Notes: generated by a model from the sequence alone, not told the origin. Counted from the first letter of the stretch, positions 2,735-23,918 are shown. The stretch is DNA of 64,000 nt from Alphaproteobacteria bacterium (GCA_021296325.1 JAGWAR010000006.1:33572-97571); one strand, 5' to 3'. Program-made: numbers and translations.

Positions 2735-4177
2735 ATGATACCGAACGTTTTATTCCAGGTTACCCATGCCATTCAGCGCGCGCTTTGCGCGGCTTTTATC
2801 CTGGCCGTTGCCATCGGCACCTTCACGCCCCACAGCGTCCTTGCGGAAGACCGGTTCCCCGAAAAAGACGAGCTGAAGTTCGGGTTCATCAAACTGACCG
2901 ACATGGCACCTCTCGCCATTGCCTACGAAAAAGGATTTTTCGAAGACGAAGGACTTTACGTAACGCTCGAACCGCAAGCCAACTGGAAGGTGCTGCTCGA
3001 CCGTGTCATCACGGGTGAGCTGGATGGCGCCCACATGCTGGCGGGTCAACCGCTGGCAGCCACCATCGGCTACGGAACAAAGGCGCATATCATTACGCCC
3101 TTTTCCATGGACCTGAACGGGAACGGAATCACCGTCTCGAACGCGGTGTGGGAGATGATGAAGCCCAATCTCCCCAAAATGCCGGACGGCCGTCCCGCAC
3201 ACCCGATCAAGGCCGATTACCTGAAGCCGGTCATCGAAAAATTCAAGACCGAGGGACGCACCTTCAACATGGGCATGGTGTTCCCGGTCTCGACCCACAA
3301 CTACGAGCTGCGCTATTGGCTCGCGGCGGGCGGGATTCATCCCGGCTTCTATTCCCCAACAGACATTTCCGGACAGATTCAGGCGGAAGCCTTGCTTTCC
3401 GTGACGCCGCCGCCACAGATGCCGGCGACGCTCGAAGCGGGCACGATCTTCGGCTATTGCGTCGGCGAGCCCTGGAATCAGCAGGCCGTTTTCAAGGGCA
3501 TCGGCGTTCCGGTCATCACCGACTATGAAATTTGGAAAGACAATCCCGAAAAGGTTTTCGGCATCACGGCTGAGTTCGCGGAAAAATACCCCAATACCAC
3601 CCATGCGATTACCAAAGCCCTGATCCGAGCGGCCCAATGGCTTGACGAGAACAACAACGCAAACCGCATGGAAGCCGTCAAGATTTTGTCGCGCCCAGAA
3701 TACGTCGGCGCGGACGCCAAGGGTATTGCGAATTCGATGACCGGCACCTTCGAATACGAAAAAGGGGACAAGCGCGACGTTCCTGACTTCAACGTCTTCT
3801 TCCGCTACCACGCGACCTATCCCTACTACTCGGACGCCGTCTGGTATCTGACACAGATGCGCCGTTGGGGACAGATTGCCGACAGCAAGCCTGACTCCTG
3901 GTATGCAGAAATCGCCAAGAAAGTATACCGGCCGGATATTTACATCGAAGCGGCCAAGCGGCTCGTAGCAGAGGGGCACGTCAAGCAAGCGGACTTTCCG
4001 TGGGAAACGGATGGCTATCGCAAGCCGACCTCCGACTTTATCGATGGCATTGAATACAACGGCCGCAAACCGATCGCCTTTCTCTCGCACTTCCCGATCG
4101 GACTGAAGGATGGCCAAAGCGTTAGCAATAACGGCGTGAGCGGAGCCGCTCCCGCATCCGCGGAACCAGCTACATGA
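2735..4177 (+). CDS. nrtA: CmpA/NrtA-family nitrate ABC substrate-binding protein
   Basis: [23 protein letters not shown] and [10 protein letters not shown] motifs. Confidence 0.9.
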
Positions 4178-9805: not shown

Positions 9806-12461
9806 ATGACTCCGGCCGCCACCCGGACAACGTGCCCATACTGCGGGGTTGGCTGTGGCGTGACAGCCCGCGCCGGAGCAGATGGCGCCATTGCCATCGA
9901 AGGGGATCCCGATCATCCCGCCAATCGGGGACGGCTGTGCTCGAAAGGCTCCGCCCTCGGAGAAACCCTCGCGTCAACCAGCCGTCTACTGCGCCCGCGC
10001 GTCGGGGGAAAGGATACGGATTGGGATACGGCGCTTTCGCATGTTGCCCGAGGATTGTCCGAAACGTGCGAGCGGCACGGGCCGGATGCAGTGGCATTTT
10101 ACGTTTCAGGACAATTACTTACCGAAGATTACTACGTCGCAAACAAGCTTCTGAAAGGATTCGTCGGAACCGCCAACATCGACACGAATTCCCGCCTTTG
10201 CATGGCGTCTTCCGTCGCCGGCCACAAGCGCGCCTTCGGAAGCGACACCGTACCGGGTTGTTACGAAGACCTGGAGCAGGCGGATCTCGTCGTTCTCGTC
10301 GGCTCCAACTTCGCCTGGTGCCATCCGGTGCTGTTTCAGCGGCTACAGGCGGCGCGCGCAGACCGCAACACGCGCATCGTTGTTATCGATCCGCGTCGGA
10401 CAGTTACGGCGGAATCGGCGGATTTTCACCTGTCCCTCGCCTCCGGGTCCGACGTCGCGCTTTTCAACGGGCTGCTTGCCTATCTCGCAAGCAACGGGGC
10501 CGCCGATTCCGATTACCTCGATTCTTACACCTCGGGATGTGCGGACACCCTTGAAACCGCCCGCCCTTTCAACATCGAAGAAGTGGCGCGTATCACGCAC
10601 CTCCCCCCCGACCAGATCAACGCCTTCTACGAGGCCTTTCTCAAAACCGAACGGGTCGTGACGGTTTACTCGCAGGGCGTCAACCAGTCGAGCGCCGGCT
10701 CGCATAAGGTCAACGCGCCTCTATACGGGCCGTATCGGACGTGCCGGCATGGGGCCTTTCTCGATCACCGGCCAGCCAAATGCGATGGGCGGTCGTGAGG
10801 TGGGCGGGCTGGCCAATCAGCTGGCGGCCCATATGGAAATCACGAACCCATCGCACCACGATCTCGTACGCCGTTTCTGGGACGCGCCGACGATGCCCGA
10901 ACGTCCAGGCATGAAGGCGGTTGACCTGTTCCGTGCGGTGGGGCGCGGTGAAGTAAAGGCTGTCTGGATCATGGCGACAAACCCCGTCGCCAGCCTACCC
11001 ATGGCCGAGACAGTCGCCGAGGCTCTGCGCACCTGCCCACTGGTCATATTGTCGGACGTCACGGACACCACGCGCACGGCCGCCATGGCCGACGTGCTGC
11101 TGCCCGCCGCGGGATGGGGAGAAAAGGACGGCACGGTCACCAATTCCGAACGGCGCATCTCGCGCCAACGCCCCTTTCTGCCGCCGCCCGGCGAGGCCCG
11201 CCCCGACTGGCAGATTGTCGCCCAGGTTGCACAGAAGATGAAATTCCGGGGTTTCGATTACCCAAACGCCGCCGCCGTCTTCCGCGAGCATGCCGCGCTT
11301 TCCGCCTTCGAAAACAACGGCACCAGGGATTTCGACATCGGCGGCCTCGCATCCCTGACGGACGAAGCCTATGACACCATGGAACCCGTCCAATGGCCCG
11401 TCCCCAAGGGCCGTCGCCAGGGCACGGCGCGGCTGTTTGGAAAAGGCGGATATTTCACGGCGACCGGCCGCGGTCATTTCGTGCCCACCCTCTTCCGCCC
11501 ACCGGCATCCACGCCAAGCGCGGGCTACCCCCTAGTCATGAACACGGGCCGTATCCGCGATCAATGGCACACGATGACACGGACCGGCATGGTGCCGCGG
11601 CTGCTTGTGCACACGGCCGAACCTTTCGTGGAGATACACCCCGAGGACGCGGCAGCGGCCGGCGTTGCACCAGCCACGCTGGCTTGCGTGGAAAGCCCCC
11701 ATGGCTGCCTGATTGCGCGCGTCCTTCCAACCTCGCGCCAGTCCCGCGGCACCGTCTTCGTGCCGATGCACTGGACGGCACCCTATGCCGCCTGCGCACA
11801 ACCGGATTCCCTGGTTGCCAATCACGTTGACCCGGTTTCGGGCCAGCCGGAACTCAAGCATACGCCCGTGCGGGTAACGCCCTATGCGGCGGCCTGGTAC
11901 GGCTACCTTGTGACGCGACGCCAGCCTCGGCTGGATGGTTTCGGTTACTGGGCGCTGGCGCTGGCGAAGGATGGCTGGCGCGCGGAACTTGCGGACAGGA
12001 CGGCTCCGGATTCCTTCCCACGTCTCGCACGCGCCCTGCTTGGCCTGGATGCAGACGACCCGGCGGCCGACGACGCCCTGCTCACCTACCACGACACGGC
12101 GGGCGGCGAGCACCGCTTCGCGCATTTCCGGGAAAACCGGTTCGAAGGCGCCCTGATGACGGCACCCCTGCCGGTGGCGGCCGGGCGGACATGGTTGGCC
12201 GACCAGCTCGGCGAAACGCTGTCGCAAACGGCGCGGCACCACGTTCTGGCCGGGCGGGCGGGAGCGGATTGCCCGGACCCGGGAGCCATCGTGTGTGCCT
12301 GTTTCGAAATCGGCATCCATCAGATTACGGACGCCATCGCGGCCGGCGCGACCAGCGTCGATGCCGTCGGCACCGCCGTGAAAGCAGGCATGAATTGCGG
12401 TTCGTGCCGCGCCGAGATCAACCGCATCCTGGCACAGACTGCGATCAAGCAGGCCGTCTAG
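9806..12461 (+). pseudogene. nasA: Assimilatory nitrate reductase catalytic subunit, split by a frameshift at about 10718
   Basis: N-half has TCPYCGVGC and NSRLCM; C-half has GQPNAMGGREVGG, TGRIRDQWHTMTRT and a C-terminal BFD domain. The frame changes between KVNA and LYTGRIG. Confidence 0.85.
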
Positions 12462-12469
12462 GCAACCGT

Positions 12470-13060
12470 CTCGGGCTGCACGATGGAGATCGAGCGCAGA
12501 ACGCCTGGCTGCTCCGTTTCTGTCCGGGCAACCTTGCCCTTGCCGTCAGGCTCCTCCGGCAAACCGGCATGAGGGCCGAGGAAGGCTTTTCCCTCGAGCA
12601 CGGCCAGTGTGACCTCAAGCGCCACGAGCGCCTGTTGCCGCGGACCAAGACGAACCGGCCGCGGGTGATACCGCTCGCCGATCCCCTGCTCGCCGACGCC
12701 GGTATCACGCTGAGTATCACACCCCGCCACCTTACCTCCCCCTTCGTGTTCTGGCACGGTGACGGAACCCGCTACCGCAACGTCGCCTCCCGGTTTGCCG
12801 AGATCATGCGCCGGGCCGAGCGTCAGGCCCTCGTCGAAAAGCGCCAGTTTCAACGCTTTCGCTGCCACGACCTGCGGCACAAGTTTGCGGTCGAATATCT
12901 GAAAAGCGGCGGCGATATTTACGCGCTCGCCCGTATCCTGGGGCACTCATCGGTCAAGACGACGGAAATCTATCTCGCCTGCACGAGCGAAGGTGTATCC
13001 CAAAAAGTATCACAGCAGCGGCGGTTTTCTCGGGCCGGTGAAGGCGAGATATCCATCTAA
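12470..13060 (+). pseudogene. 5'-truncated tyrosine recombinase/integrase remnant
   Basis: TGMR, TKT, HDLRH, LGH and TEIY catalytic motifs; no plausible start or N-terminal domains; ends 10 bp from the tRNA 3' end. Confidence 0.8.
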
Positions 13061-13070
13061 CGCATTGAAT

Positions 13071-13163
13071 TGGCGGAGGGAGAGGGATTCGAACCCTCGA
13101 TAGGGCTTTACACCCTATAACGGTTTAGCAAACCGCCGCCTTCAGCCACTCGGCCACCCCTCC
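13071..13163 (-). tRNA. tRNA-Ser(GCT)
   Basis: GGAGGGGTGGCCGAGTGG...GGTTT GCT AAACC..., long variable arm, GGTTCGAATCC T-loop, encoded CCA. Confidence 0.95.
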
Positions 13164-13199
13164 GGAACGGGAAAACGCGCAAACCGCGCCCGCAGCCGG

Positions 13200-13228
13200 G
13201 TTCTAGCGGCGGGGCCGAAGGCTGTCAA
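13200..13228 (-). promoter_or_regulatory. sigma70 promoter of tRNA-Ser
   Basis: TTGACA-17 bp-TAGAAC on the minus strand. Confidence 0.6.
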
Positions 13229-13415
13229 TGAAGTGCCCCCCGCGGAACCCTTAAAAAACCCTTGGTTTCCGGGCCTGCACGCCCGGTCCGGCGAAGCGCC
13301 TTGCCTCGCCTTCGTTTTCCGTTAACATTTCCGTATAAGGGGGGAGGCTATCCTCTAGGAAGACACAAAGAAACCGGCGTCGGCGGGCGTTGCCCGCTGC
13401 GGGAAAGGCTGGTGC

Positions 13416-13943
13416 ATGAGAAAGCGGATAGCAGGTTTTGCCCTGGCGGCCCTCTGCCTATGGGCCGTTACCGGCAATCAAACCTTTGCGGAAGAGCCGA
13501 GCGTGGCGGTCGCAAAGGCGGCGTCCGTGCGCGCGCTGCAATCCGAATTGATGGTGGCCGCCCTCGCCTGCCCCGGCGACCTCGGGGTTTCACTGGTCCG
13601 GAACTACAACCGTTTCGTCCGGCATTTCTCGCCCGCCCTCATCCGCAGCGCCAATACGCTTCGCACCCACTTCCGGACGACCTATGGCGCCGAACACGTG
13701 ATTCGTTTCGATTCTTTCCTGACCCGCCTTGCCAATCAGGCGTCCCTTAGCTCGATCCGCGAGGCGGCCTATTGTCAGGACCGCGCCCGGATGGTCGAGG
13801 CGGCGCTGGGCTTGAATGACGCCGACCTCGAAAGCTTCACGATCACGGCCTATGCGGCCTCGGCCGACCTCACCGGCGAAGAGTTATTCCCCTCCCACGC
13901 GACGCGCCTTGCCGCCCGCGAGGCGATCGAACGCGCCGAATAG
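13416..13943 (+). CDS. Exported hypothetical protein
   Basis: Signal peptide; LQSELMVAALAC...YNRF...FLTRLAN...C; codon usage like the core genes. Confidence 0.65.
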   Translation: MRKRIAGFALAALCLWAVTGNQTFAEEPSVAVAKAASVRALQSELMVAALACPGDLGVSLVRNYNRFVRHFSPALIRSANTLRTHFRTTYGAEHVIRFDSFLTRLANQASLSSIREAAYCQDRARMVEAALGLNDADLESFTITAYAASADLTGEELFPSHATRLAAREAIERAE

Positions 13944-13956
13944 GCCTCTTTCCGTT

Positions 13957-15066
13957 TTAAGGTAGTTGAATTTCGACCCGGCGGTTCCGGGGCTCGCGCA
14001 CATTGTCCGGCGTCGCGACAAGCGGGTCGTCCTCACCCCTGCCAAGTGTCACGATCTGATTGGCCGCCACCCCCTGACCAACCAGAAAATTTTTCACTGC
14101 TGCGGCCCGGCGTTCGGAAAGCCCCTGGTTGTATCCGCGCGAGCCGGAACGGTCCGCATGACCGGTCAGCTGAATGACGGTGGCGACGCCCTGTTTCGCG
14201 ACGGCCGCCGCCTCGGCCAGGATCTGAGCCGCATCCGGCCGTACGGCCGTCTGGTCCCAATCGAAGAAGACGAGGAAGGTCTGTGTCGTGCGGGGCGCCG
14301 GGGCCGGGCTGCCCTCGGCGACGCGGCGTTCGGCCGGCCGGGTAACGGCTGGAACCGGCGCCGGGGCCGAAGGCTGGGACTTCATGCCGGGTTCGGGACC
14401 GAAATGCCAGGTGAGGCCGAACAGGATCGAATGGTCCTCGACGCCGCTTTCGACGCTTTCATTGGCGGCCGTCACGAATTCCGGCCCGACCGTCGTCAGA
14501 TACCGGTAGTCCACATTGGCCGTAAGCCGGGGTGTGAGCGTGTGGCTTACGCCGAAAATCGCCTGATAGGCGAAAACGCTGTCGTCGCTATCGATCAGCA
14601 GCGTGCCGCCCTGCGTCACGCCGTTAAGCGAAACCTGTGCGGTGCCAAGGCCAAAACCCGCATACACACCCAAGAAGCGGTCCGGCGCAATTTCGGTTTT
14701 ATAAAAATCGTAGATGAAGTTCGCCGTCACGGTGCGGATCGATCGGTCCCCGCTCACGACTCCGGTACCGCCGATCAGGGCTTCGACGTCATTCTCGCGG
14801 TAGAGAAACTCGCCTTCGATACGGAACCCGTTGAAGTCATAGCCCACCGCCGCGCCGGCCAGATAACCGGACTTGAATTCGCTGGTGCGGTTGAAGGTGC
14901 TGCCCAACAGGCCGGTGATGGACTCCGGATCCGCATAGTTCCCGCCGCCCTGGGCGCGCACGTACCACGCTTCCTCGGCGGCGGCGCCGACCGGCGCCGC
15001 AACCGCAAGGACGAACAGAAGCACTGCACTTCCCGCTCGAAGACTCGGGAACTTCCTGTCAACCAC
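13957..15066 (-). CDS. OmpA-family protein (N-terminal beta-barrel plus C-terminal peptidoglycan-binding domain)
   Basis: Barrel strands, Pro/Ala linker, then GHADRSG..YNQGLSERRA..GRGE..NRRVEI. GTG start at 15066 inferred from a GGGAG RBS. Confidence 0.85.
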   Translation of the reverse strand: MVDRKFPSLRAGSAVLLFVLAVAAPVGAAAEEAWYVRAQGGGNYADPESITGLLGSTFNRTSEFKSGYLAGAAVGYDFNGFRIEGEFLYRENDVEALIGGTGVVSGDRSIRTVTANFIYDFYKTEIAPDRFLGVYAGFGLGTAQVSLNGVTQGGTLLIDSDDSVFAYQAIFGVSHTLTPRLTANVDYRYLTTVGPEFVTAANESVESGVEDHSILFGLTWHFGPEPGMKSQPSAPAPVPAVTRPAERRVAEGSPAPAPRTTQTFLVFFDWDQTAVRPDAAQILAEAAAVAKQGVATVIQLTGHADRSGSRGYNQGLSERRAAAVKNFLVGQGVAANQIVTLGRGEDDPLVATPDNVREPRNRRVEIQLP

Positions 15067-15134
15067 GGTAGGGTACTCCCATGAGGGTGAATGGCCCAAG
15101 ATAAGGGAAACCGGGGCAAAATGTCGAGGCCCAC

Positions 15135-15142
15135 GAGAACCG
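15135..15142 (+). repeat. 8-bp target site duplication (left copy)
   Basis: GAGAACCG, identical to 18937-18944. Confidence 0.9.
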
Positions 15143-15162
15143 GGTAGTGTCTCAGTTTGAAA
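15143..15162 (+). repeat. Terminal inverted repeat
   Basis: GGTAGTGTCTCAGTTTGAAA; contains the transposase stop codon. Confidence 0.92.
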
Positions 15163-16039
15163 TCTGGCGTTTCCTATAAGCCTTCGGCCTGCCCGGCTTC
15201 GGGGCGCGGGCGTCTATCAGACCCACGATCCATTCCATGTCATGCAGGGTATAGGAAATACCGGCTTCCATCGCCGGGGATATTCCGCCCAGCGCCTTGT
15301 GCTGACGGCAGAAATTATACCAGACAAAGTATAGCGCCAGCGCATGACAGTGGTTTTCGAATTTCTTGGAGAACGCATTGGTCAGCCTAGTAAATCGCCG
15401 CATGGACATCCGCATCGTCAGGTTCTGCCGCTCGACGTAGGATGTAGAGACGTGCTTGGGATCGGGCTTTCCCCGAAGACGGTCCTTTTTAACGCCATTG
15501 CAAACAGGCGGGCTATATCGCTTTTCGCTTTCTGGGGCTGTGCCGTACATCTTTACAAGCTGGGCATAATCAATACCCCTATCAGCAAACGCCCCGATCA
15601 CAGCATCCAGATAGGCATAATGCCCGTCGGTGGTTAGCTGGACGCGATTTGTTAGGCGACCCGCTACATCATCCATGAAGGCGTTTGCTAACTCGGAGTC
15701 CCGGCCACCGACCAGCCAAGAGACAATCAGCTTGCTATCGGCATCCAAAGCCGTCCACGTCCATACATCGCCCGCACCCTCTGGCGCGGCCTTCGCCGTG
15801 GGTACGTTCTTCGCCTTGGCGTAGGCAAAGCTCCAGATTTCATCGCACTGGACGCGCTTGGATTTAAGCCCGCGCACATGTTCGTCATGATAGGCCGCGC
15901 AAGCGTTCCCGGCATCCACCAACAATTTGGATACTGTATTGATGGAAACGCCCACCACGCGGCTGATGGACCGCATGGAAGACCCCTCGCAGAGCATGGA
16001 AAGGATTTGGATGCGCTTCTCTAGGGGCAATTTGTTCAT
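15152..16039 (-). CDS. IS1-family DDE transposase (single ORF)
   Basis: N-terminal HTH (SMRSISRVVGVSINTV); D in QCDEIW, D in TTDG, E in YVERQN; RRFTRLTNAFSKK. Confidence 0.9.
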   Translation of the reverse strand: MNKLPLEKRIQILSMLCEGSSMRSISRVVGVSINTVSKLLVDAGNACAAYHDEHVRGLKSKRVQCDEIWSFAYAKAKNVPTAKAAPEGAGDVWTWTALDADSKLIVSWLVGGRDSELANAFMDDVAGRLTNRVQLTTDGHYAYLDAVIGAFADRGIDYAQLVKMYGTAPESEKRYSPPVCNGVKKDRLRGKPDPKHVSTSYVERQNLTMRMSMRRFTRLTNAFSKKFENHCHALALYFVWYNFCRQHKALGGISPAMEAGISYTLHDMEWIVGLIDARAPKPGRPKAYRKRQISN

Positions 16040-16045
16040 GCCCCT

Positions 16046-16074
16046 ATTATCTGAACTTATATACTTAGCGTCAA
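16046..16074 (-). promoter_or_regulatory. sigma70 promoter of the transposase
   Basis: TTGACG-17 bp-GATAAT, 6 nt upstream of the ATG. Confidence 0.7.
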
Positions 16075-16084
16075 GTATTTTTGT

Positions 16085-17257
16085 TCACTTAAGGGTTGGT
16101 TCAATAATCGGGGGCTCTCCCATCGTAAGCGAACCCTTTTTAAGGTTGCACATGGCCTCAATGAAGCGTGGATTGATCTGGACAGCAGCTTTTAATCCGT
16201 CAGCAGTCATTTTGCCGCTCTCCGCTGCCAAATCGAATGCCCGAGTCAAAAGGCGTGGGCTCTCTAGGGGGATGAGTGACGGGTCATCTAGCGGCTCTTG
16301 TGTGCGCCACTTCCTGAAAGAAACCTGCTTACGCATATTCAAAATTTGGTTCTCATCGAAAATCCCAAGATCAGAACAACGGTAAATCATAGCTTGAATT
16401 GAAACACGCCATCGGCGTTTCAATTCCACAAATGCATCTAACCGTGGTGTAAATACTTCGTTGGGAAACGAGTGTTTTGGAAGTAGGAAAGCCCCAGCAA
16501 AACGATCCGCTTGTCTCTCTATTTCCTTTAAAAATGTCCTATCCTCAATTTCAGATGAATCAATATGTCGGTGCATCACCAAATGCCCAAGCTCGTGAGC
16601 AAGATCGAATCTAGTCCGCACCCCGGCCTTTTTCTCGGATGCCATAAAAATGAACGGACGTGGGCCATTCCAGAATGAAAACGCCTCTACATTTTCGCCA
16701 GCCATTTCATAGCGACAAGCAATGACACCATTCGATTCCAGCAGGGCCAATACATTAGAAATTGGCCCCAAACCAAGCCCCCAGTCTGAGCGAACCCGCT
16801 CTGCTATTTCGTCAATCCCATCTTCGCCAAAGTCAGCGTGGTCATATTGAGGAACCTTAACTGCCGGATAATTCACAAAGCGATCAAACGCCTTCGCCAC
16901 TTGCACAAACCAGCCAGCATAAGTGTCGCACGCCTCGCGCCGACGAGCGGTATCGGAGCCAAATTTGCGATAAAACCGTGTGGTCGATTGCCCGAATACA
17001 GGCTCATCTTCCGACGTAAAGAACCCCGGCGGCTGCTCAAGTGCAGAGACGAGCGCCGTAAAGGTTTCTGGATCGGGAAGTCTGTCCCCGCGCTCGAATT
17101 GCGAAATTGCTTGGCGCGTAACACCAATTCGGTCGCCCAATTCTTCCTGCGATAGGCGCAAAAACTTACGCGCATCCCTAACGCGCGCTGGAATCAAAAG
17201 CCGCCCACCACGATCAGGGCGGGCGGCTGGGAAATGGACGATGTTATTCGTTGTCAC
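16085..17257 (-). CDS. XRE HTH plus ImmA/IrrE zinc metallopeptidase (RmrA-like antitoxin candidate)
   Basis: LSQEELGDRIGVTRQAISQFERG HTH; RFDLAHELGH (HExxH); ERQADRFAGAFLLP. Confidence 0.88.
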   Translation of the reverse strand: MTTNNIVHFPAARPDRGGRLLIPARVRDARKFLRLSQEELGDRIGVTRQAISQFERGDRLPDPETFTALVSALEQPPGFFTSEDEPVFGQSTTRFYRKFGSDTARRREACDTYAGWFVQVAKAFDRFVNYPAVKVPQYDHADFGEDGIDEIAERVRSDWGLGLGPISNVLALLESNGVIACRYEMAGENVEAFSFWNGPRPFIFMASEKKAGVRTRFDLAHELGHLVMHRHIDSSEIEDRTFLKEIERQADRFAGAFLLPKHSFPNEVFTPRLDAFVELKRRWRVSIQAMIYRCSDLGIFDENQILNMRKQVSFRKWRTQEPLDDPSLIPLESPRLLTRAFDLAAESGKMTADGLKAAVQINPRFIEAMCNLKKGSLTMGEPPIIEPTLK

Positions 17258-17918
17258 GCCTTAGCCTGTCGATTTCTTCTTTAAGAGTCATCACCGCTTC
17301 AACGTCCGTTTCCTCCATCGGAACTTCCGACTGGGGAACCGAATGAGCCATCAACATCAAATTGGGCGACCTATGCTGAAACCCTTCAGAGTGGCGAGGG
17401 TGTGGAATCGCAAGGTGTGCGAAATCAAGCGTCTGATGGCCATGCAGCAGCAGAATGTGCGGCGCCCCATTCCATTCCCCTAAATCTTCCCGCATGAACT
17501 CCATGGAGATCTGGCTAGTTAGCCTTTTATTCCGGCGAAATTTTACGTCACGCGGCTGCTTGTCCGGATGGGCGACTTGGCTGATGGTTAACACAGAGTG
17601 GCTGAACAAAACTTCCAAGTAGCGGCCCGTCGGGCGTTCGAATAAACGCCAGCACCGATCAACACCGAACTGGCCCGAATCGACCAGCTTCTCGAACGCC
17701 AAATCGACCGCCCACTGAATGATCCGCCCTCGATTGGCCTTTGCGCTCTCTACGGAAAGAATGGGCTCTTTGTCTATGACAAGGCTTGCTGCCGCATAGG
17801 CTTGCTTCAGGGTAGTTGGAACAACCGCCCGACGAACAAGCGGAATCTGGTCGAGAAGAAACGCTTCAGAGAGTTCCAAGGAGGAGGCCCTTTCCGGGTT
17901 GCCGAAGTCAGTAGGCAA
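17244..17918 (-). CDS. Hypothetical protein (candidate toxin partner of XRE-ImmA)
   Basis: 224-aa ORF overlapping the ImmA start by 14 bp; the real start may be the TTG at 17879. Confidence 0.7.
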   Translation of the reverse strand: MPTDFGNPERASSLELSEAFLLDQIPLVRRAVVPTTLKQAYAAASLVIDKEPILSVESAKANRGRIIQWAVDLAFEKLVDSGQFGVDRCWRLFERPTGRYLEVLFSHSVLTISQVAHPDKQPRDVKFRRNKRLTSQISMEFMREDLGEWNGAPHILLLHGHQTLDFAHLAIPHPRHSEGFQHRSPNLMLMAHSVPQSEVPMEETDVEAVMTLKEEIDRLRRDNE

Positions 17919-17919
17919 C

Positions 17920-17948
17920 TATTTACGAAATTACCAGGTTTTTGTCAA
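17920..17948 (-). promoter_or_regulatory. sigma70 promoter of the two-gene cargo operon
   Basis: TTGACA-17 bp-TAAATA. Confidence 0.5.
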
Positions 17949-18184
17949 CTGCAAGATTTCCCCCATCGCTTGGCAGCCGCCTTCTTAGCGATCTCCGCCC
18001 GCTTCTTCTTGCTCAGGCTCTTGGCCCGCGCTTGGCCGCCCTTTTTCCCTAGGGCAACGGCGGCCTTGTTTTTGCCGTTCTCATCTACGCTATCTTCAAT
18101 CTCGCCCGTAGCGATCTTGGCAACCTTGACGGCGGCTCCAATCACATCGGCAGGGCGTTTCTCGCCTTTGGGGCCCTTAGGCAT
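17945..18184 (-). CDS. Small basic IS1-associated protein
   Basis: MPKGPKGEKRPADVIG...AVALGKKGGQARAKSLSKKKRAEIAKKAAAKRW; Lys/Ala-rich. Confidence 0.8.
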   Translation of the reverse strand: MPKGPKGEKRPADVIGAAVKVAKIATGEIEDSVDENGKNKAAVALGKKGGQARAKSLSKKKRAEIAKKAAAKRWGKSCS

Positions 18185-18390
18185 CAGGCGTCCACCTCAG
18201 AAATGATGGTGTAGCCTGCGGAAAGCGTGCCCGTGCCGGTCGCAGAAGGGCGGGACGGCTGCCAAGTGAAGCCCACAATGCGAACGTGGCCCTTACGCGT
18301 TGCGATGTTCTGCAAAACCTCGTTTAGATTGGAAATATCATCCCGTGCGGTATCTGCTTGGTACTTTTTAGCTTCAGCTCTTTCAGCCAT
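18184..18390 (-). CDS. Hypothetical 68-aa protein
   Basis: GAGG RBS; TGATG coupling to the 79-aa gene. Confidence 0.65.
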   Translation of the reverse strand: MAERAEAKKYQADTARDDISNLNEVLQNIATRKGHVRIVGFTWQPSRPSATGTGTLSAGYTIISEVDA

Positions 18391-18417
18391 AGTCGCTTCC
18401 TCATGTGCTTTCCGCTA

Positions 18418-18446
18418 AGCATATAGGGATTTAAGGCGTGCTGCAA
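18418..18446 (-). promoter_or_regulatory. sigma70 promoter of the 68-aa/79-aa operon
   Basis: TTGCAG-17 bp-TATGCT. Confidence 0.55.
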
Positions 18447-18497
18447 ACAGCAGCCTTTGGTATCTTTCTCACGTTCACAATTGATGGGGGATTAGCT

Positions 18498-18665
18498 ATG
18501 GCTAGAGTATCTCCTTTCCATAGTAAGAAGAATCCTGGCGTCTACCACGTTTGCTCAAATTGTACTGAGGGCAATAATATCGAACGTGAAAATAGAGCCT
18601 CCGGGACTGGGGGTGGGTCGCTTTGCCAGCGATGCAGCGAGCTACAGCGTTCGGGTAATTGTTAA
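18498..18665 (+). CDS. 55-aa Cys/His-rich mini-protein
   Basis: MARVSPFHSKKNPGVYHVCSNCTEGNNIE...LCQRC...C; GGGGGA RBS. Confidence 0.65.
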   Translation: MARVSPFHSKKNPGVYHVCSNCTEGNNIERENRASGTGGGSLCQRCSELQRSGNC

Positions 18666-18902
18666 CTCATTAATATGGTTTACGCGGGGGGCGGCCTCCA
18701 AGCGCTTGCAGTGATCCCAAATCAATTCGCCAAGAGTTGGGAGGCTGACCCCCCACTTTCGAGAAAGCCACTCAAATGTCATTCCGTTAGAGTGGATTTC
18801 CCAACACAGGATTTCGCCAAAGCTTTTTCCACATCCAGTCGGGCATGCCTCATATTGCTCGACAATTAATCGCCGTAGCCTTGTTAGGTGGGATTCCTCC
18901 AT
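18642..18902 (-). CDS. Hypothetical Cys-containing protein with an HTH-like segment
   Basis: MEESHL...CPTGC...TFEWLSRKWGVSLPTLGELIWDHC. Confidence 0.5.
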   Translation of the reverse strand: MEESHLTRLRRLIVEQYEACPTGCGKSFGEILCWEIHSNGMTFEWLSRKWGVSLPTLGELIWDHCKRLEAAPRVNHINELTITRTL

Positions 18903-18916
18903 GTCAACCGCCCGAT

Positions 18917-18936
18917 TTTCAAACTGAGACACTACC
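18917..18936 (-). repeat. Terminal inverted repeat
   Basis: TTTCAAACTGAGACACTACC, the exact reverse complement of 15143-15162. Confidence 0.92.
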
Positions 18937-18944
18937 GAGAACCG
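18937..18944 (+). repeat. 8-bp target site duplication (right copy)
   Basis: GAGAACCG. Confidence 0.9.
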
Positions 18945-18958
18945 GCCCCGGCCCCGCC

Positions 18959-20379
18959 TTATTCGGCCAGCTTCTTCTTCAGGATCTCGTTGACGAGTTT
19001 CGGGTTCGCCTTGCCCTGGGTCGCCTTCATCACCTGTTGCCGCCCTTGTAATCGGCCACTTTTTCGGCCTCGCCGGCCAACACCTGGGCGATCGCCGCCT
19101 CGATGGCGCCGGTATCCGTCACCTGGCGCAGGCCCTTTTCCTCGACGATGGCGGCGGCCGGCTTACCGGTCTCCACCATCTCGGCGAAGACATCTTTGGC
19201 GATCCGCCCCGAAATCGTGTCGTCCGCGATGAGGTCGACCAACCCGCCCAAATCCTCCGCCGAGACGGGCGAGGCCGTGACCGGAACGCCTTTCTTGTTG
19301 AGCGCGCCGAAAAGCTCGCCGATGACCCAGTTGGCGGCCAGTTTCGGGTCGCGGCCCTTCGCCACCTTCTCGTAATAGGCCGCATTCTCCTGCTCGGCGA
19401 CCAGCACGCCCGCATCGTACGGCTGAAGACTGTATTCGGTGATGAAGCGTTCCTTCTTGTCGTCGGGCAGCTCCGGCAAGGCGGCGCGCAGTTCCTCGAC
19501 GCAATCCTCGCTCAGGCGAAGCGGCAGCAAATCCGGGTCCGGGAAATAGCGGTAGTCATGCGCCTCTTCCTTTGACCGCATCGGGCGCGTCTCGCCCTTC
19601 GCCGAATCGAACAACCGCGTTTCCTGACGAATCGTGCCGCCGTCTTCCAGAAGGTCGACCTGACGGCGCGCCTCGTATTCGACGGCCTGCATGGCGAAGC
19701 GAACCGAATTCACGTTCTTGATTTCGCAGCGCGTGCCGTAAGGCTCGCCCGGCCGGCGCACGGAGACGTTCACGTCACAGCGCATCGAACCTTCTTCCAT
19801 GTTGCCGTCGCAGGTGCCGAGATAGCGCAGGATCGAGCGCAGCTTCCGAAGGTAAGCGCCAACCTCCTCCGATCCGCGCAAATCCGGCTCGGAAACGATT
19901 TCCATCAGCGCCACGCCGGCCCGGTTGAGGTCGACATAGGTCTGGTTCGGATGCTGGTCGTGGAGGCTCTTGCCGGCGTCCTGCTCCAGGTGCAACCGCG
20001 TGATGCCGACCGTGCGCGTCTTGCCGTCCGGCAGGTCGAGCAGCACCTCGCCCTTGCCCACGATCGGATGCGTCCATTGGGAAATCTGGTAGCCGGCCGG
20101 CAGGTCCGGGTAGAAATAGTTCTTGCGGTCGAAGATCGAGACCCGGTTGATCTCGGCCTTCAGCCCCAGCCCCGTGCGCACCGCCTGGCGGACGCATTCC
20201 CCGTTGATGACGGGCAGCATGCCCGGCATCGCCGCATCGACCAGCGAGACCTGGGTGTTTGGCTCGGCCCCGAAATCGGTCGGCGCGCCGGAGAAAAGCT
20301 TCGCCTTCGAGACGATTTGGGCGTGCACCTCGCAACCGATAACGATCTCCCATTCGCCGGTGGCCCCCTGAATGCCCAT
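18959..20379 (-). CDS. gatB: Asp/Glu-tRNA amidotransferase subunit B, with an apparent frameshifting deletion at 19036/19037
   Basis: [20 protein letters not shown] and YRYFPDPDL motifs. The tail [25 protein letters not shown] lies in another frame. Confidence 0.9.
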
Positions 20380-21842
20380 CACGCGCCCCTCTGGATGCCG
20401 GGCGCGGCCGCCTCCAGGGCGGCGGCGGCGCGCAGCAGGGTGGCCTCGTCGAAGGCGCGGCCGATCAACTGCAGGCCCAGGGGCAACCCGTCGGCCGACA
20501 GGCCGGCCGGCACTGACACGCCCGGCAGACCCGCCAGGCTCGCCGGCACCGTGAAGACGTCGTTCAGGTACATGGCGACGGGGTCATCTTCCTTTTCGCC
20601 GATCGGGAAGGCCGGCGTCGGCGTCGTCGGCGTGAGCAGCACGTCCACCTTGCCGAAGGCCTCTTCGAAATCGCGGGCGATCAGGGTCCGCACCTTCTGC
20701 GCCTTCAGGTAGTAGGCGTCGTAATAGCCGGCCGACAGCACATAGGCGCCGATCAGGATGCGGCGCCGGACTTCCCGGCCAAAGCCTTCGGCCCGTGTCT
20801 TCTTATACATGTCGTTGAGGTCCTCGCCTGCGACCCGAAGGCCGTAGCGGACCCCGTCATAGCGCGCCAGGTTCGACGACGCCTCCGCTGGCGCGATGAT
20901 GTAATAGGCGGGCAGTGCATATCTCGTGTGGGGCAGCGAAACGTCGACGATTTCCGCTCCTGCGTCTTTCAGCCAGACCTTGCCCTGCTCCCACAGGGCG
21001 GTGACTTCCTCCGCCATGCCATCGGCCTGGTATTCCTTCGGAATGCCGATTTTGAGCCCGCGGACGCCTTGCCCGAGGGCAGCCTCGAAGTCCGGGACCG
21101 GCACGTCGGCCGAGGTCGAATCCTTCGGGTCGAACCCCGCCATGGCGCCTAGCAGGATGGCGGCGTCGCGCACGCTACGGGCAAAGGGCCCAGCCTGGTC
21201 GAGCGAGGAAGCAAAGGCGACGATGCCCCAGCGCGAACAGCGTCCATAGGTGGGCTTCAGCCCGACGACGCCGCAGAAGGCGGCGGGTTGGCGGATCGAA
21301 CCGCCAGTGTCCGTCCCCGTCGCTCCCAGGCACAACCCCGCCGCCACGGCGGCGGCCGAGCCGCCGGAGGAACCGCCGGCCACCAGCGGCCGGTTGTCGC
21401 CCTCCCGCCGCCAGGGGTTCTCGGTCGGTCCGAAATGGCTCGTCGTCGTCGACGAGCCCATGGCGAATTCGTCCAGGTTCGTCTTGCCCATGGGCACGGC
21501 GCCGGCATCCCATAATTTCGCGGTGACCGTCGATTCGTAGGGCGGCACGAAACGGTCCAGGATGCGGGAGGCGGCGGTGGTGCGAATGCCTTCCGTGCAA
21601 AACAAATCCTTCACCGTGACCGGAATGCCTTCCAGCGCGCGGCCCTCGCCCTTGGCCAGACGCGCATCGGACGCCTTCGCGGCCGCAAGCGCCGCCTCCG
21701 GCGTCTCCGTGATGATGGCGTTGAGGCCACGGGCCGCCTCCACCGCCTGTACATGGGCGGCGACCAGTTCCTCGGCGCTGAATGCCTTCTTTCGAAGGCC
21801 GTCGCGCGCCTCGGCAAGGGAAAGATGGGTAAGCGCGGCCAT
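20379..21842 (-). CDS. gatA: Asp/Glu-tRNA amidotransferase subunit A
   Basis: Amidase signature [27 protein letters not shown]. Confidence 0.95.
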
Positions 21843-21848
21843 GAGCCC

Positions 21849-22136
21849 CTACTCGACGACCTTCGGAACCGTGAAGAAACCCGCCGTAGCTTCCGGCGCG
21901 TTGGCCAGGATCTTGTCGCGCTGGTCGCCTTCCGTCACCTCGTCCGCCCGGCGGCGCAATTCCATCGCGGCGACGGAGGCCATCGCTTCGACGTTTTCGG
22001 TGTCGACTTCCTCCAGCTGCTCGACAAAATCGAGAATTTTGGAAAGCTCTCCGGCCAAATCCTCGAGTTCTTCCTCGCCCACCCGAATACGGGCAAGCGA
22101 TGCGATGCCTGCCACGGTGGCCTTGTCCAGAGACAT
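21849..22136 (-). CDS. gatC: Asp/Glu-tRNA amidotransferase subunit C
   Basis: IASLARI...NAP...FFTVPKVVE; ATG at 22136. Confidence 0.92.
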   Translation of the reverse strand: MSLDKATVAGIASLARIRVGEEELEDLAGELSKILDFVEQLEEVDTENVEAMASVAAMELRRRADEVTEGDQRDKILANAPEATAGFFTVPKVVE

Positions 22137-22221
22137 GAGGTAAGTCTCTCCAGGTAAATGATCGGAATGCCTTGAAAACCGGGGCGTCCGGTGGAATATG
22201 GAGCGGAAGGTATCACCCGCT

Positions 22222-22704
22222 ATGGCGATCTGCAACCCTATGGAGCTTCGCGCACGCCTCGCCCCCGACGCGTGCCTGATCGGCCTCGACGTCGGCGAGA
22301 AAACGATCGGGATCGCATTCTCCGACCCTTCTTGCACGATCGCGACACCTTATGAGACGCTCCAGCGATCGAAATTTCGAGACGACGTTGAAAAGTTGAA
22401 AGCGCACATCGCCTCCCATCATGTCGGCGGCATCGTCGTCGGCCTGCCCATCAACATGAACGGAACGGAAGGTCCGCGTTGCCAATCGACGCGCGCCTTT
22501 GCCGACAATTTGCTGCAGGTCATCGACCTGCCGCTCGTCTTCTGGGACGAACGCCTGTCCACGGCCGCTGTGACGCGCACGCTTCTGGAGGCGGACCTCT
22601 CCCGCAAACGCCGCCGCGAAGTCGTCGACAAACTTGCCGCCGCATACATTCTGCAAGGTCTGCTCGATTCCTACGCCGCCCTCAAGAAAGAGGCCGGACC
22701 GTGA
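22222..22704 (+). CDS. ruvX: YqgF/RuvX pre-16S rRNA nuclease
   Basis: GLDVGEKTIGIA, WDERLST, VDKLAAAYILQ. Confidence 0.9.
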   Translation: MAICNPMELRARLAPDACLIGLDVGEKTIGIAFSDPSCTIATPYETLQRSKFRDDVEKLKAHIASHHVGGIVVGLPINMNGTEGPRCQSTRAFADNLLQVIDLPLVFWDERLSTAAVTRTLLEADLSRKRRREVVDKLAAAYILQGLLDSYAALKKEAGP

Positions 22705-23918
22705 CGGGCCCGCTTGCAGACGTCCGTATCCTGGATCTGACGCGCGTGCTGGCGGGACCTACCTGCACGCAGCTTCTGGGCGATTTCGGCGCCGACGTCA
22801 TCAAGATCGAACGGCCCGGCATCGGCGACGACACGCGGAAATGGGGGCCGCCCTACCTCAAGGACGCGGCCGGCAAGGAAACCTCCGAAAGCGCCTATTA
22901 CCTGAGCGCCAACCGCAACAAGCGTTCGGTGACGATCGACTTTGCGCAGCCCGAAGGCCAGGCCCTCGTGAAACGCCTTCTGGAAAAGTGCGACCTTCTT
23001 GTCGAAAACTTCAAGGGCGGCACATTAAAGAAATATGGCCTTGCCTTCGATCAGCTCCAGCCCGACTTCCCCGCCCTGATCTATTGCTCGATCTCCGGTT
23101 TCGGACAGACCGGACCTTACGCCCACCGGGCCGGCTACGACTACCTCGCCCAGGCCATGGGCGGATTGATGAGCATCACCGGCGAACCGGAGGGCGAGCC
23201 GGTCAAGGTCGGCATCGGCATCGCCGACATCATGGCCGGCATGTACGCGACCAGCGCCATCCTTGCCGCCCTTCACCGGCGCACCGAAACCGGCGAAGGG
23301 CAATCCATCGACGTCGGCCTGCTCGATTCCCAGGTCGCCTGGCTCACCTACGAAGGCCAGAACTACCTCACCTCCGGCCAGCTGCCGCAGCGGCGCGGCA
23401 ACGCGCATCCGAACATCGTCCCCTACCAAACCTTCGCGGCAGCCGACGGCTACTTCGTGCTGGCCGTCGGCAACGACCGCCAGTTTCAGAAATTCTGCGG
23501 CTTTGCGGGCTGCCCGGAGCTGGCCGAGGATCCGCGCTATCGGACGAATTCGAAGCGCATCGAAAACCGCCAGGAACTCGCCAGGATCCTAAGCGACGTG
23601 ATCGCGCAAAAGCCGATCAAATACTGGACGGAGGGGCTGGAAAAGCTGGGCGTGCCCTCCGGGCCCGTCAACGACATCCAGGGCGTTTTCGAGGACCCGC
23701 AGATCCGCCACCGCGCGATGAAGATCCGGATGCCCCATGCGCTCCGCTCGGACCCCCCGATCGACCTGATCGGCAATCCGGTCCACCTTTCGGGGACGCC
23801 CGTCTCCTATCGCCACCCGCCGCCCGTCCTCGGCCAGCACACCGACGAGATCCTGGCCGATCTGCTCGACATGCCCGAGGCCGAACGGGAAGCGTTGCGG
23901 GAAAAGGGTATTATCTAG
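22701..23918 (+). CDS. CaiB/BaiF family III CoA-transferase
   Basis: DLTRVLAGP, GADVIKIE, NRNKRS, GYDYLAQA; GTG start overlapping the ruvX stop. Confidence 0.9.
   Translation: MTGPLADVRILDLTRVLAGPTCTQLLGDFGADVIKIERPGIGDDTRKWGPPYLKDAAGKETSESAYYLSANRNKRSVTIDFAQPEGQALVKRLLEKCDLLVENFKGGTLKKYGLAFDQLQPDFPALIYCSISGFGQTGPYAHRAGYDYLAQAMGGLMSITGEPEGEPVKVGIGIADIMAGMYATSAILAALHRRTETGEGQSIDVGLLDSQVAWLTYEGQNYLTSGQLPQRRGNAHPNIVPYQTFAAADGYFVLAVGNDRQFQKFCGFAGCPELAEDPRYRTNSKRIENRQELARILSDVIAQKPIKYWTEGLEKLGVPSGPVNDIQGVFEDPQIRHRAMKIRMPHALRSDPPIDLIGNPVHLSGTPVSYRHPPPVLGQHTDEILADLLDMPEAEREALREKGII

Follow-up and report, generated by a model that had tools for sequence, protein, structure and literature searches.

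A probably mobile IS1-related transporter insertion sequence carries a RosmerTA pair between a conserved small gene and its transposase

A 64-kb stretch of DNA from an alphaproteobacterium (GCA_021296325.1, JAGWAR010000006.1:33572-97571; all of it is hereafter called the window) contains a transposase gene embedded in several kilobases of unusual composition, and the question raised by this locus is what actually moves: the transposase gene with its nearest end, or a much longer unit. A first-pass annotation of the window had favoured the longer unit, a 3.8-kb insertion sequence (IS) of the transporter type (tIS) with six passenger genes. By comparing the element with its relatives, we conclude with good confidence that it is a genuine, intact and probably mobile tIS. 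With similarly good confidence we regard it as an intact member of a large IS1-related tIS clade which, among the 75 elements examined, never occurs without extra genes.

The element measures 3794 bp and occupies the short intergenic stretch that separates gatB from an OmpA-like gene (13957-15099, -; Table 1). Its terminal inverted repeats, with the sequence GGTAGTGTCTCAGTTTGAAA, are 20 nt long, 100% complementary and 3754 nt apart, and the 8-bp target-site duplication GAGAACCG was found directly outside both of them. Allowing up to 3 mismatches, GGTAGTGTCTCAGTTTGAAA matches just these 2 sites in the 64-kb window and none in 100 shuffles. As a bare 8-mer, GAGAACCG occurs 3 times in the window against 3.5 expected, which is chance level, so its evidential weight comes from its placement at both junctions and not from its occurrence. 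The G+C content is 52.4% in the element versus 64.1% and 64.7% in the 5-kb flanks, and the interior stays 12 points below both flanks throughout (50.4% for the RmrA gene and 55.2% for the transposase gene). The transposase is a single open reading frame (ORF) of the DDE type whose stop codon (15152-15154) falls inside the left repeat. The perfect repeats, the exact duplication, the stop within a repeat, the AT-richer cargo and an extent far beyond the 295-amino-acid (295-aa) ORF had all been put forward in the first-pass annotation, and each was recovered here.

Table 1 Features of the element and of its target-site duplication (positions counted from the first nucleotide of the window)
Feature	Position	Strand	Basis or remark
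Left copy of the target-site duplication, GAGAACCG	15135..15142	.	Abuts the outer repeat end
Terminal inverted repeat at the transposase end (inverted repeat right, IRR, by IS convention)	15143..15162	+	Sequence GGTAGTGTCTCAGTTTGAAA
DDE transposase, 295 aa, single ORF, N-terminal helix-turn-helix	15152..16039	-	Pfam, NCBIfam, alignment
Transposase promoter with dyad operator (predicted)	16040..16090	-	Promoter scan
RmrA, 390 aa, antitoxin of RosmerTA, XRE helix-turn-helix and M78/ImmA-type zinc peptidase (HExxH present)	16085..17257	-	
RmrT, toxin of RosmerTA, 211 aa from TTG 17879	17244..17879	-	PADLOC
F1, 79 aa, small, basic, three predicted helices	17945..18184	-	Homologues in all elements
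68-aa ORF in the variable small-gene slot, stop overlaps the F1 start	18184..18390	-	Few homologues
Second palindrome, GTGCTT-N6-AAGCAT, ahead of the 68-aa/F1 operon	18405..18422	.	
55-aa Cys-rich ORF (CxxC ... CxxC), good ribosome-binding site	18498..18665	+	tblastn relatives
86-aa conserved hypothetical protein, ATG at 18902	18642..18902	-	Homologues, AlphaFold2
Terminal inverted repeat at the cargo end (inverted repeat left, IRL)	18917..18936	-	Reverse complement of GGTAGTGTCTCAGTTTGAAA
Right copy of the target-site duplication, GAGAACCG	18937..18944	.	Abuts the outer repeat end

Whether the whole unit moves was most directly visible in relatives. A genome scan with the transposase gave at least 590 confirmed relatives, and the best 80, at 63-76% identity, were fetched; these 80 loci, two plasmid loci and the window made up a sample of 83 elements. 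The relatives are mostly alphaproteobacterial, some of the records being titled with other phyla and many being metagenome bins. Searching with the window's own repeat as seed and accepting up to 5 mismatches, we found both repeats in 75 of the 83. Perfect 8-bp duplications surround 64 of these 75, five further duplications have one mismatch and the remaining six have at least five, and all 64 perfect duplications differ from each other with no strong consensus. The elements are 2256-7478 bp long (median 3220), in every one of them at least 1081 bp separate IRL from the transposase start, and no bare IS of about 1 kb was found among the 75. The family consensus of the repeat equals the window 20-mer followed by a T at position 21, giving a repeat of about 21 bp, and the repeats are nearly identical across elements although the transposases are just 63-76% identical. 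Since 64 perfect duplications enclose whole units, the whole unit, cargo included, is what moves. The proposal of a tIS was thus upheld: genes unrelated to transposition lie within one repeat pair together with one transposase, and the duplication surrounds the entire unit.

Most of the eight elements for which a repeat pair was not recovered have a visible reason. In five (L006, L011, L013, L018 and L079) IRL is missing and the contig starts 60-1558 nt upstream of the transposase, so that a contig cut could explain the loss, and in L026 the contig ends 18 nt after the transposase. The transposase-end repeat of L005 (~10870-10890) is reduced to its inner 13 nt, and this copy is probably immobile; for L025 no explanation was evident. 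Plasmids carry the same kind of unit. A Hoeflea plasmid holds an element of 4224 bp with the RmrT/RmrA type of cargo seen in the window, and an Acidiphilium plasmid holds one of 2634 bp with different cargo, each with a repeat at 0-1 mismatch and with its own 8-bp duplication. Duplications are perfect in the plasmid copies L001, L002 and L085 (the last of 3370 bp), and the 3125-bp plasmid copy L086 has none. When cargo lies beyond the transposase, as in L001, the Hoeflea plasmid, it is the last cargo gene (3075-3680) and not the transposase that stops at the TGA inside the repeat, this TGA being part of the conserved repeat sequence. At the other size extreme, L046 (3414-10891) is a 7.5-kb span with several large ORFs of no known type and no matching duplication.

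We next consider which genes belong to the unit itself. Clustering by blastp (E < 1e-6) covered every mechanical ORF of 40 aa or more in the 75 elements; just two families proved universal, the transposase and a small gene that we call F1, each present in 75 of 75. In 74 of them F1 takes the form of a short ORF, encoded on the same strand as the transposase and placed upstream of the cargo near IRL, L059 being the exception. Because it occurs whatever the cargo, F1 is, judged by this distribution, a backbone gene and not cargo. Its alignment has seven invariant residues (R10, D13, G49, R53, R62, A70 and R73), and AlphaFold2 modelled it with a predicted local distance difference test score (pLDDT) of 77. 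The homologue in L085, at 46% identity, is annotated 'histone H1', and the Atlas clusters of F1 bear automatic names such as 'RNA-binding protein' and 'histone H1'. In addition, the C-terminal motif of F1 also opens P63C-domain cargo proteins, which co-clustered with F1, and occurs in PHROG 2384. No Pfam or NCBIfam model matches F1, the IS1 models included; a profile search of the PDB gave a best E of 0.81 (release factor 1, taken as chance) and Foldseek gave 0 matches. A tblastn search of plasmids with F1 returned no match although L001 and L002 hold the gene, the low-complexity filter making this search uninformative.

Two promoters appear to be built around one shared palindrome. The predicted transposase promoter consists of TTGACG, a 17-nt spacer and GATAAT, and since the end of its -10 element is 6 nt ahead of the ATG, a leaderless or near-leaderless transposase mRNA is predicted. 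The -35 element lies inside a palindrome, ATACTT-N6-AAGTAT (16061-16078; family form ATGCTT-N6-AAGCAT), which is nested in outer TGAAC/GTTCA arms. The palindrome pattern has exactly 2 matches in the window, at the two promoters, versus 0.13 expected. Among relatives, with up to 2 mismatches allowed, 45 of 75 elements have the palindrome no more than 60 nt from the transposase ATG and 50 of 73 have it between IRL and F1, where its median distance to the outer end is 66 nt; the F1-side palindrome of the window, about 515 nt from that end, is the furthest of all. Elsewhere in the elements it gave 19 matches in 211 kb. TTGAC is found at -45..-26 of the transposase in 57 of 75. Of 200 shuffles, 198 fold less well than the dyad at the transposase promoter. 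At the F1-operon palindrome an RNA hairpin was found unsupported (z +0.6, with 145 of 200 shuffles folding as well). The simplest reading of this arrangement would be a common dimeric regulator of both promoters, for which F1 and the helix-turn-helix of the transposase are candidates.

The two large genes between F1 and the transposase are, by homology, a RosmerTA toxin-antitoxin and phage-defence pair. RmrA matches PADLOC PDLC03952 with an E of 2e-180 (residues 2-390 against 2-395 of the 395 profile positions), has HTH_3 and Peptidase_M78 both above the Pfam cut-offs, and belongs to PHROG 2439. RmrT matches PADLOC PDLC03938 with an E of 2.2e-88 over residues 17-224 of the longest ORF, which starts at 17918 and would encode 224 aa; the start is probably TTG 17879, because the Atlas protein begins at residue 14. 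No Pfam family matches RmrT. The rmrT gene is upstream of rmrA, and the two overlap by 14 nt. According to sections of PMC10440598, RmrA-type antitoxins partner diverse toxins, and an RmrT carried by a phage causes membrane depolarisation and confers protection from some coliphages. Toxicity, its neutralisation by the antitoxin and protection from phage are thus known from other RosmerTA members. Cargo of the RmrA type occurs in 16 of the 75 elements. The window RmrA shares 49-51% identity with two of the same subtype and 27-35% with the other thirteen, at 65-73% identity of the transposases, so RosmerTA would have entered these elements repeatedly, or its evolution far outpaces that of the backbone. 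The proposed count of six passenger genes was accordingly not sustained: the 79-aa gene is backbone, the two large genes form one RosmerTA unit, the 68-aa ORF has one non-self homologue and a weak match in L009, and relatives of the 55-aa ORF were found in other contexts only.

Comparison of cargo among elements with the same repeat, which the first-pass annotation had recommended, showed a shared F1 and transposase with swappable cargo. Variable DNA sits in three places: a main slot from F1 to the transposase promoter, the region after the transposase, and the region just before F1. The window copy has a fourth, the 86-aa and 55-aa genes between IRL and the F1-operon palindrome. The main slot holds RmrA-type genes in 16 elements, P63C in 11, a DUF6941 trio in 5, Panacea antitoxin pairs in 4, PD-Lambda-2_B-like genes in 4, an SDH-type protease in 3, a HEC-04 ATPase in 3, two unnamed families in 3 each, PDC-S13, a STAND ATPase and Gp49-like genes in 2 each, and unique cargo in 17. 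After the transposase, 35 of 75 elements have more than 150 bp and 32 have 45 bp or less; in L062 this region (11079-13979) encodes a 967-aa Eco57I-like methylase-type protein. A small ORF precedes F1 in 47 of 73 relatives, mostly with no mutual similarity detected. The 74 other elements contain 190 cargo ORFs that reach 100 aa or more. With all of these scanned against PADLOC at 1e-5, 30 of the 74 elements had a match beyond a bare helix-turn-helix.

Cargo turnover is fast relative to the backbone. A quick maximum-likelihood tree was built from the 75 transposases with no rows left out, and on it cargo class requires 54 changes versus a shuffled mean of 55.6, the possible minimum being 28; the idea that cargo type tracks transposase lineage was rejected on these numbers. 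Moreover, near-identical transposases accompany different cargo in the pairs L072/L075, L020/L060, L051/L077 and L043/L061. At the DNA level such close pairs share three conserved blocks with no match in between, namely IRL with roughly 80-97 bp next to it, F1 except for its final 15-30 nt, and the transposase plus 39-50 nt of promoter. L019 (2983 bp) and L062 (6242 bp), which differ in cargo, belong to contigs binned into a single metagenome-assembled genome; provided that the binning is correct, the two elements co-reside, which is a condition for cargo exchange by recombination.

As to family, IS1 transposases have an N-terminal zinc finger followed by a helix-turn-helix, classical IS1 has two overlapping ORFs joined by a -1 frameshift (single-ORF subgroups exist), and the family is characterised by terminal repeats that begin GGnnnTG and by a target duplication of 8-9 bp. 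Here both ends read GGTAGTG, positions 1, 2, 6 and 7 of the repeat are conserved at 99-100% at both ends of the 75 elements, and the duplication is 8 bp, in line with the first-pass statement on ends that begin with GG and on duplication length. Among all IS models the top match to the transposase is NCBIfam IS1 (NF033558; 63.4 bits against a cut-off of 100, residues 8-145, beginning at profile position 44). Pfam DDE_Tnp_IS1 (PF03400) reaches 25.7 bits against a cut-off of 24.1, at residues 198-237 only, and HTH_38 is found at residues 4-40. At least 97% of the 75 aligned relatives share D66, D138, E203 and R210, and the window copy has all four and retains every other residue conserved to that degree in the family. 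Homologues carry the public annotation 'IS1 family transposase'. A plasmid search gave four full-length relatives at 59-69% identity, and annotated IS1-family transposases outside the clade (from cyanobacteria and Deinococcus, one labelled ISAcma3 family) are at 24-32%. The earlier assignment to IS1 stands as the closest family by hidden Markov model (HMM) and homologue annotation, with ends and duplication that fit; HMM support is marginal and the frameshift and the zinc finger are absent. We read the transposases as a distinct clade that may lie inside or beside IS1.

Taken together, we propose a fixed backbone order of IRL, palindrome promoter, F1, second palindrome promoter, transposase and IRR, in which the main slot is occupied here by rmrT and then rmrA and the slot before F1 by the 68-aa ORF. 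The transposase, translated from a leaderless or nearly leaderless mRNA, would bind the repeats and insert the whole 3.8 kb through an 8-bp staggered cut. A dimeric regulator, F1 or the transposase through its helix-turn-helix, could bind the shared palindrome and so couple the two operons. RmrT would be restrained by RmrA, and the toxin would be released when the element is lost or a phage infects the cell; such cargo may stabilise the transposon and could repay the host with abortive-infection defence. Exchange of cargo would take place between co-resident elements by recombination in the conserved modules.

Several observations weigh against parts of this picture. Six of the 75 relatives lack a duplication and one copy has a truncated repeat. 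Present-day activity is at most plausible, the element being single in the window, where a repeat search with up to 3 mismatches found no second copy. The IS1 membership is marginal, given a Pfam margin of 1.6 bits, an NCBIfam IS1 score below its cut-off and the low identity to IS1 transposases outside the clade. The N-terminus of the transposase contains no CxxC pair, the zinc finger of classical IS1 thus being absent, and the gene is a single ORF with its own ATG and promoter and no two-ORF frameshift. That the elements always carry cargo holds for the clade of the best 80 of at least 590 relatives only, and the ORFs compared were mechanical longest ORFs. As 44 of the 74 other elements have no PADLOC match beyond a helix-turn-helix, 'defence cargo' is a tendency and not a rule. 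Finally, F1 as a regulator is a guess from its position and universality.

How far do alternative explanations account for the same data? The mobile unit might be just the transposase gene of about 1 kb with its near repeat, the far repeat being a leftover and the genes between having been trapped by chance; the window has one transposase and one repeat pair, and GAGAACCG occurs elsewhere in it at chance frequency. We regard this as extremely improbable, given that the duplication adjoins both outer ends, that the interior differs by 12 points of G+C from both flanks, and that 64 of 75 relatives have perfect whole-unit duplications at 64 sites, with no element below 2256 bp. One could also suppose that the entire element moved once and is now fixed, persisting solely through the penalty that its toxin-antitoxin pair puts on loss. 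The copy is the only one in 64 kb, neither a sister copy nor a polymorphic site was seen, the nearest relative of its transposase (76% identity, within the best 80 of at least 590) documents no recent spread, and the G+C content is still unlike that of the host, all of which would suit a fixed element. Yet the 20-bp repeats and the 8-bp duplication are perfect, the transposase ORF is intact with all residues of at least 97% conservation, and its promoter is intact; permanent immobility therefore seems rather unlikely to us. A recent insertion that is still mobile is plausible because of these perfect repeats and duplication and the retained transposase residues.

A further alternative concerns the family. 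ISNwi1-type members of IS1595 with passenger genes give 8-bp duplications, the size range of passenger-carrying IS1595 members includes lengths like that of this element, and the two families IS1 and IS1595 are considered to be related. Placement in IS1595 would agree with the single-ORF transposase, with the 8-bp duplication and with a weak NCBIfam IS1595 match (19 bits against a cut-off of 75, residues 3-145). We strongly doubt it nonetheless: the NCBIfam scores are 63 bits for IS1 and 19 for IS1595, homologues are annotated as IS1 family, the ends fit GGnnnTG, and Pfam DDE_Tnp_IS1 is above its cut-off while neither Zn_ribbon_IS1595 nor DDE_Tnp_IS1595 matches the window transposase. Those two Pfam models are not insensitive, since they respond strongly to an IS1595-family transposase nested in L037 (10927-11877; 1e-38 for the DDE model and 3e-9 for the zinc-ribbon model). 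More open to argument is the role of F1, which might stand outside the transposition machinery as a nucleoid-associated or silencing protein, or as a cargo accessory such as a co-regulator or antidote, inherited once and kept. Its Lys/Ala-rich composition, the names 'histone H1' and 'RNA-binding protein' of its relatives, the motif shared with P63C-domain proteins and PHROG 2384, and a transposase that already has its own helix-turn-helix lend this some appeal. Retention in 75 of 75 elements while all neighbouring genes were exchanged, a position near IRL on the transposase strand, and membership of one of the three blocks conserved between close pairs make it, on balance, somewhat unlikely; such backbone behaviour does not by itself tell a transposition regulator from a cargo silencer. 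Going beyond our preferred reading of an IS1-related tIS clade, one may speculate that the clade serves specifically to shuttle defence and toxin-antitoxin genes, and that F1 and the palindromes regulate transposition and mark boundaries for site-directed, and not merely homologous, swapping of cargo. We think this quite unlikely; if true, these 2-7-kb elements would be a transposon-borne counterpart of integron cassettes for bacterial immunity.

Comparison with known systems places these features in context. Like IS1 of Escherichia coli and the IS1 family, including the single-ORF ISAcma3 type, the element combines a DDE transposase for which IS1 models are the best, if marginal, match with GGnnnTG ends and an 8-bp duplication, and it has a small gene reading inward by IRL, F1 here; in IS1, insA lies next to IRL. 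Unlike IS1, it has no programmed frameshift and no zinc finger, its transposase has its own promoter and start, F1 has no detectable relationship to InsA (no IS1, other Pfam or NCBIfam model), and 1.1-6.6 kb separate IRL from the transposase start with no bare form among the 75. Integron cassettes and the P2/P4 prophage hot spots also have conserved flanks around highly variable defence-type genes. Here, in contrast to both, a transposon serves as carrier, a small gene and a promoter form the flanks, and there is no integrase, attC-like site or phage gene. Tn3 elements are larger than the present ones, use a different transposase plus a resolvase, and make 5-bp duplications. The present elements resemble the Tn3 family in having a toxin-antitoxin pair inside a transposon and differ in being 2.3-7.5 kb long with an IS1-like enzyme; toxin-antitoxin modules next to the transposition genes of Tn3 elements are proposed, in parts of PMC7157771, to stabilise invasion.

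The tIS concept itself is an established category, described for IS1595 and other families in sections of PMC3129680, PMC9330008 and PMC7986276. Our elements agree with it in having one IS-type transposase and one repeat pair that enclose genes unrelated to transposition. They differ in the obligate carriage across this clade, the universal accessory gene, the defined slots and a cargo distributed at random on the transposase tree. The RosmerTA pair of the window is no different from that outlined in portions of 10.1101/2022.05.11.491447 and PMC10440598, a helix-turn-helix and zinc-peptidase RmrA beside an RmrT of unknown fold; what differs is its context, a 3.8-kb IS1-like transposon. We did not find RosmerTA inside such a transposon described in the literature searched. 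Likewise, in a search confined to the literature, no description was found of an IS1-like clade with obligate carriage, a universal small gene, fixed slots and reshuffled cargo in which toxin-antitoxin and defence genes abound.

These points matter because current annotation gives an isolated 'IS1 family transposase' with neighbours named 'hypothetical' or 'histone H1', leaving the unit and its cargo invisible. The family has at least 590 members, mostly in alphaproteobacterial genomes and plasmids. Its elements transport toxin-antitoxin and phage-defence genes as units of 2-7 kb, and cargo is reshuffled faster than the transposase diverges. Slot contents hence offer a simple route to new defence candidates, 44 of the 74 other elements having cargo that PADLOC matches no further than a helix-turn-helix. 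The elements are also a small natural system for how addiction modules aid transposon persistence, and F1 is a universal accessory protein whose fold and function can be studied.

The remaining small ORFs belong to this copy. For the 68-aa ORF a word search gave one non-self homologue, at 70% identity and on 31 contigs, and the ORF at the same position in L009 is 32% identical (E 2e-7). Adjoining IRL are an extra ~450 bp that are unique among the 75 elements compared and hold the 86-aa and 55-aa genes, both of which were absent from the other 74 elements by ORF clustering. Judged from its homologues, the 86-aa gene is real: 281 have E <= 0.001, and the 120 listed are at 66-80% identity, none of them functionally named. 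Its longest ORF begins with a GTG at 18932, inside the repeat. Residues C33, H37, H64, C65 and H76 are invariant, and AlphaFold2 predicts four helices with a pLDDT of 89.5. No PDB fold matched significantly, the best being helix-turn-helix domains at E >= 1, and tblastn found no match in plasmids or phages. The 55-aa ORF has no Pfam, NCBIfam or PADLOC family. Its tblastn matches lie in 12 plasmid records (Bradyrhizobium, Mesorhizobium, Arthrobacter and Curtobacterium) at 40-57% identity, and in the two records inspected (L083 and L084) the relatives are alone and unannotated. This family is small, and it occurs on Bradyrhizobium/Mesorhizobium plasmids of symbiosis size and on actinobacterial plasmids.

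The surroundings of the element gave some minor observations. The gatB frame (19030-20382, -) stops early at 19030, with the conserved C-terminal tail in another frame down to 18960, and the Pfam GatB_Yqey match reaches only position 116 of the 148 in the profile. About 95 bp from IRL there thus seems to be a frameshift or a small deletion, either an assembly indel or a real lesion. Further away, a nitrate-reductase-like molybdopterin oxidoreductase at 9806-12461 (+), recognised from translations alone, is split between two ORFs that overlap in different frames, 9806-10798 and 10749-12461; as a second apparent frameshift in the window, this makes assembly indel errors possible. An Rfam scan of 11000-23000 gave only tRNA plus two matches below gathering score outside the element. 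At 13074-13128 (+), antisense to a tRNA-Ser, a plastid 3' untranslated region family scored 55.9 bits against a gathering score of 68, which we took as an artefact of tRNA-like sequence. That gene, tRNA-Ser(gct) at 13071-13163, abuts the ORF 12191-13060, which on translation alone appears to be the C-terminal part of a tyrosine recombinase, and the site, 2 kb from the transposon, resembles what is left of an integrative element.

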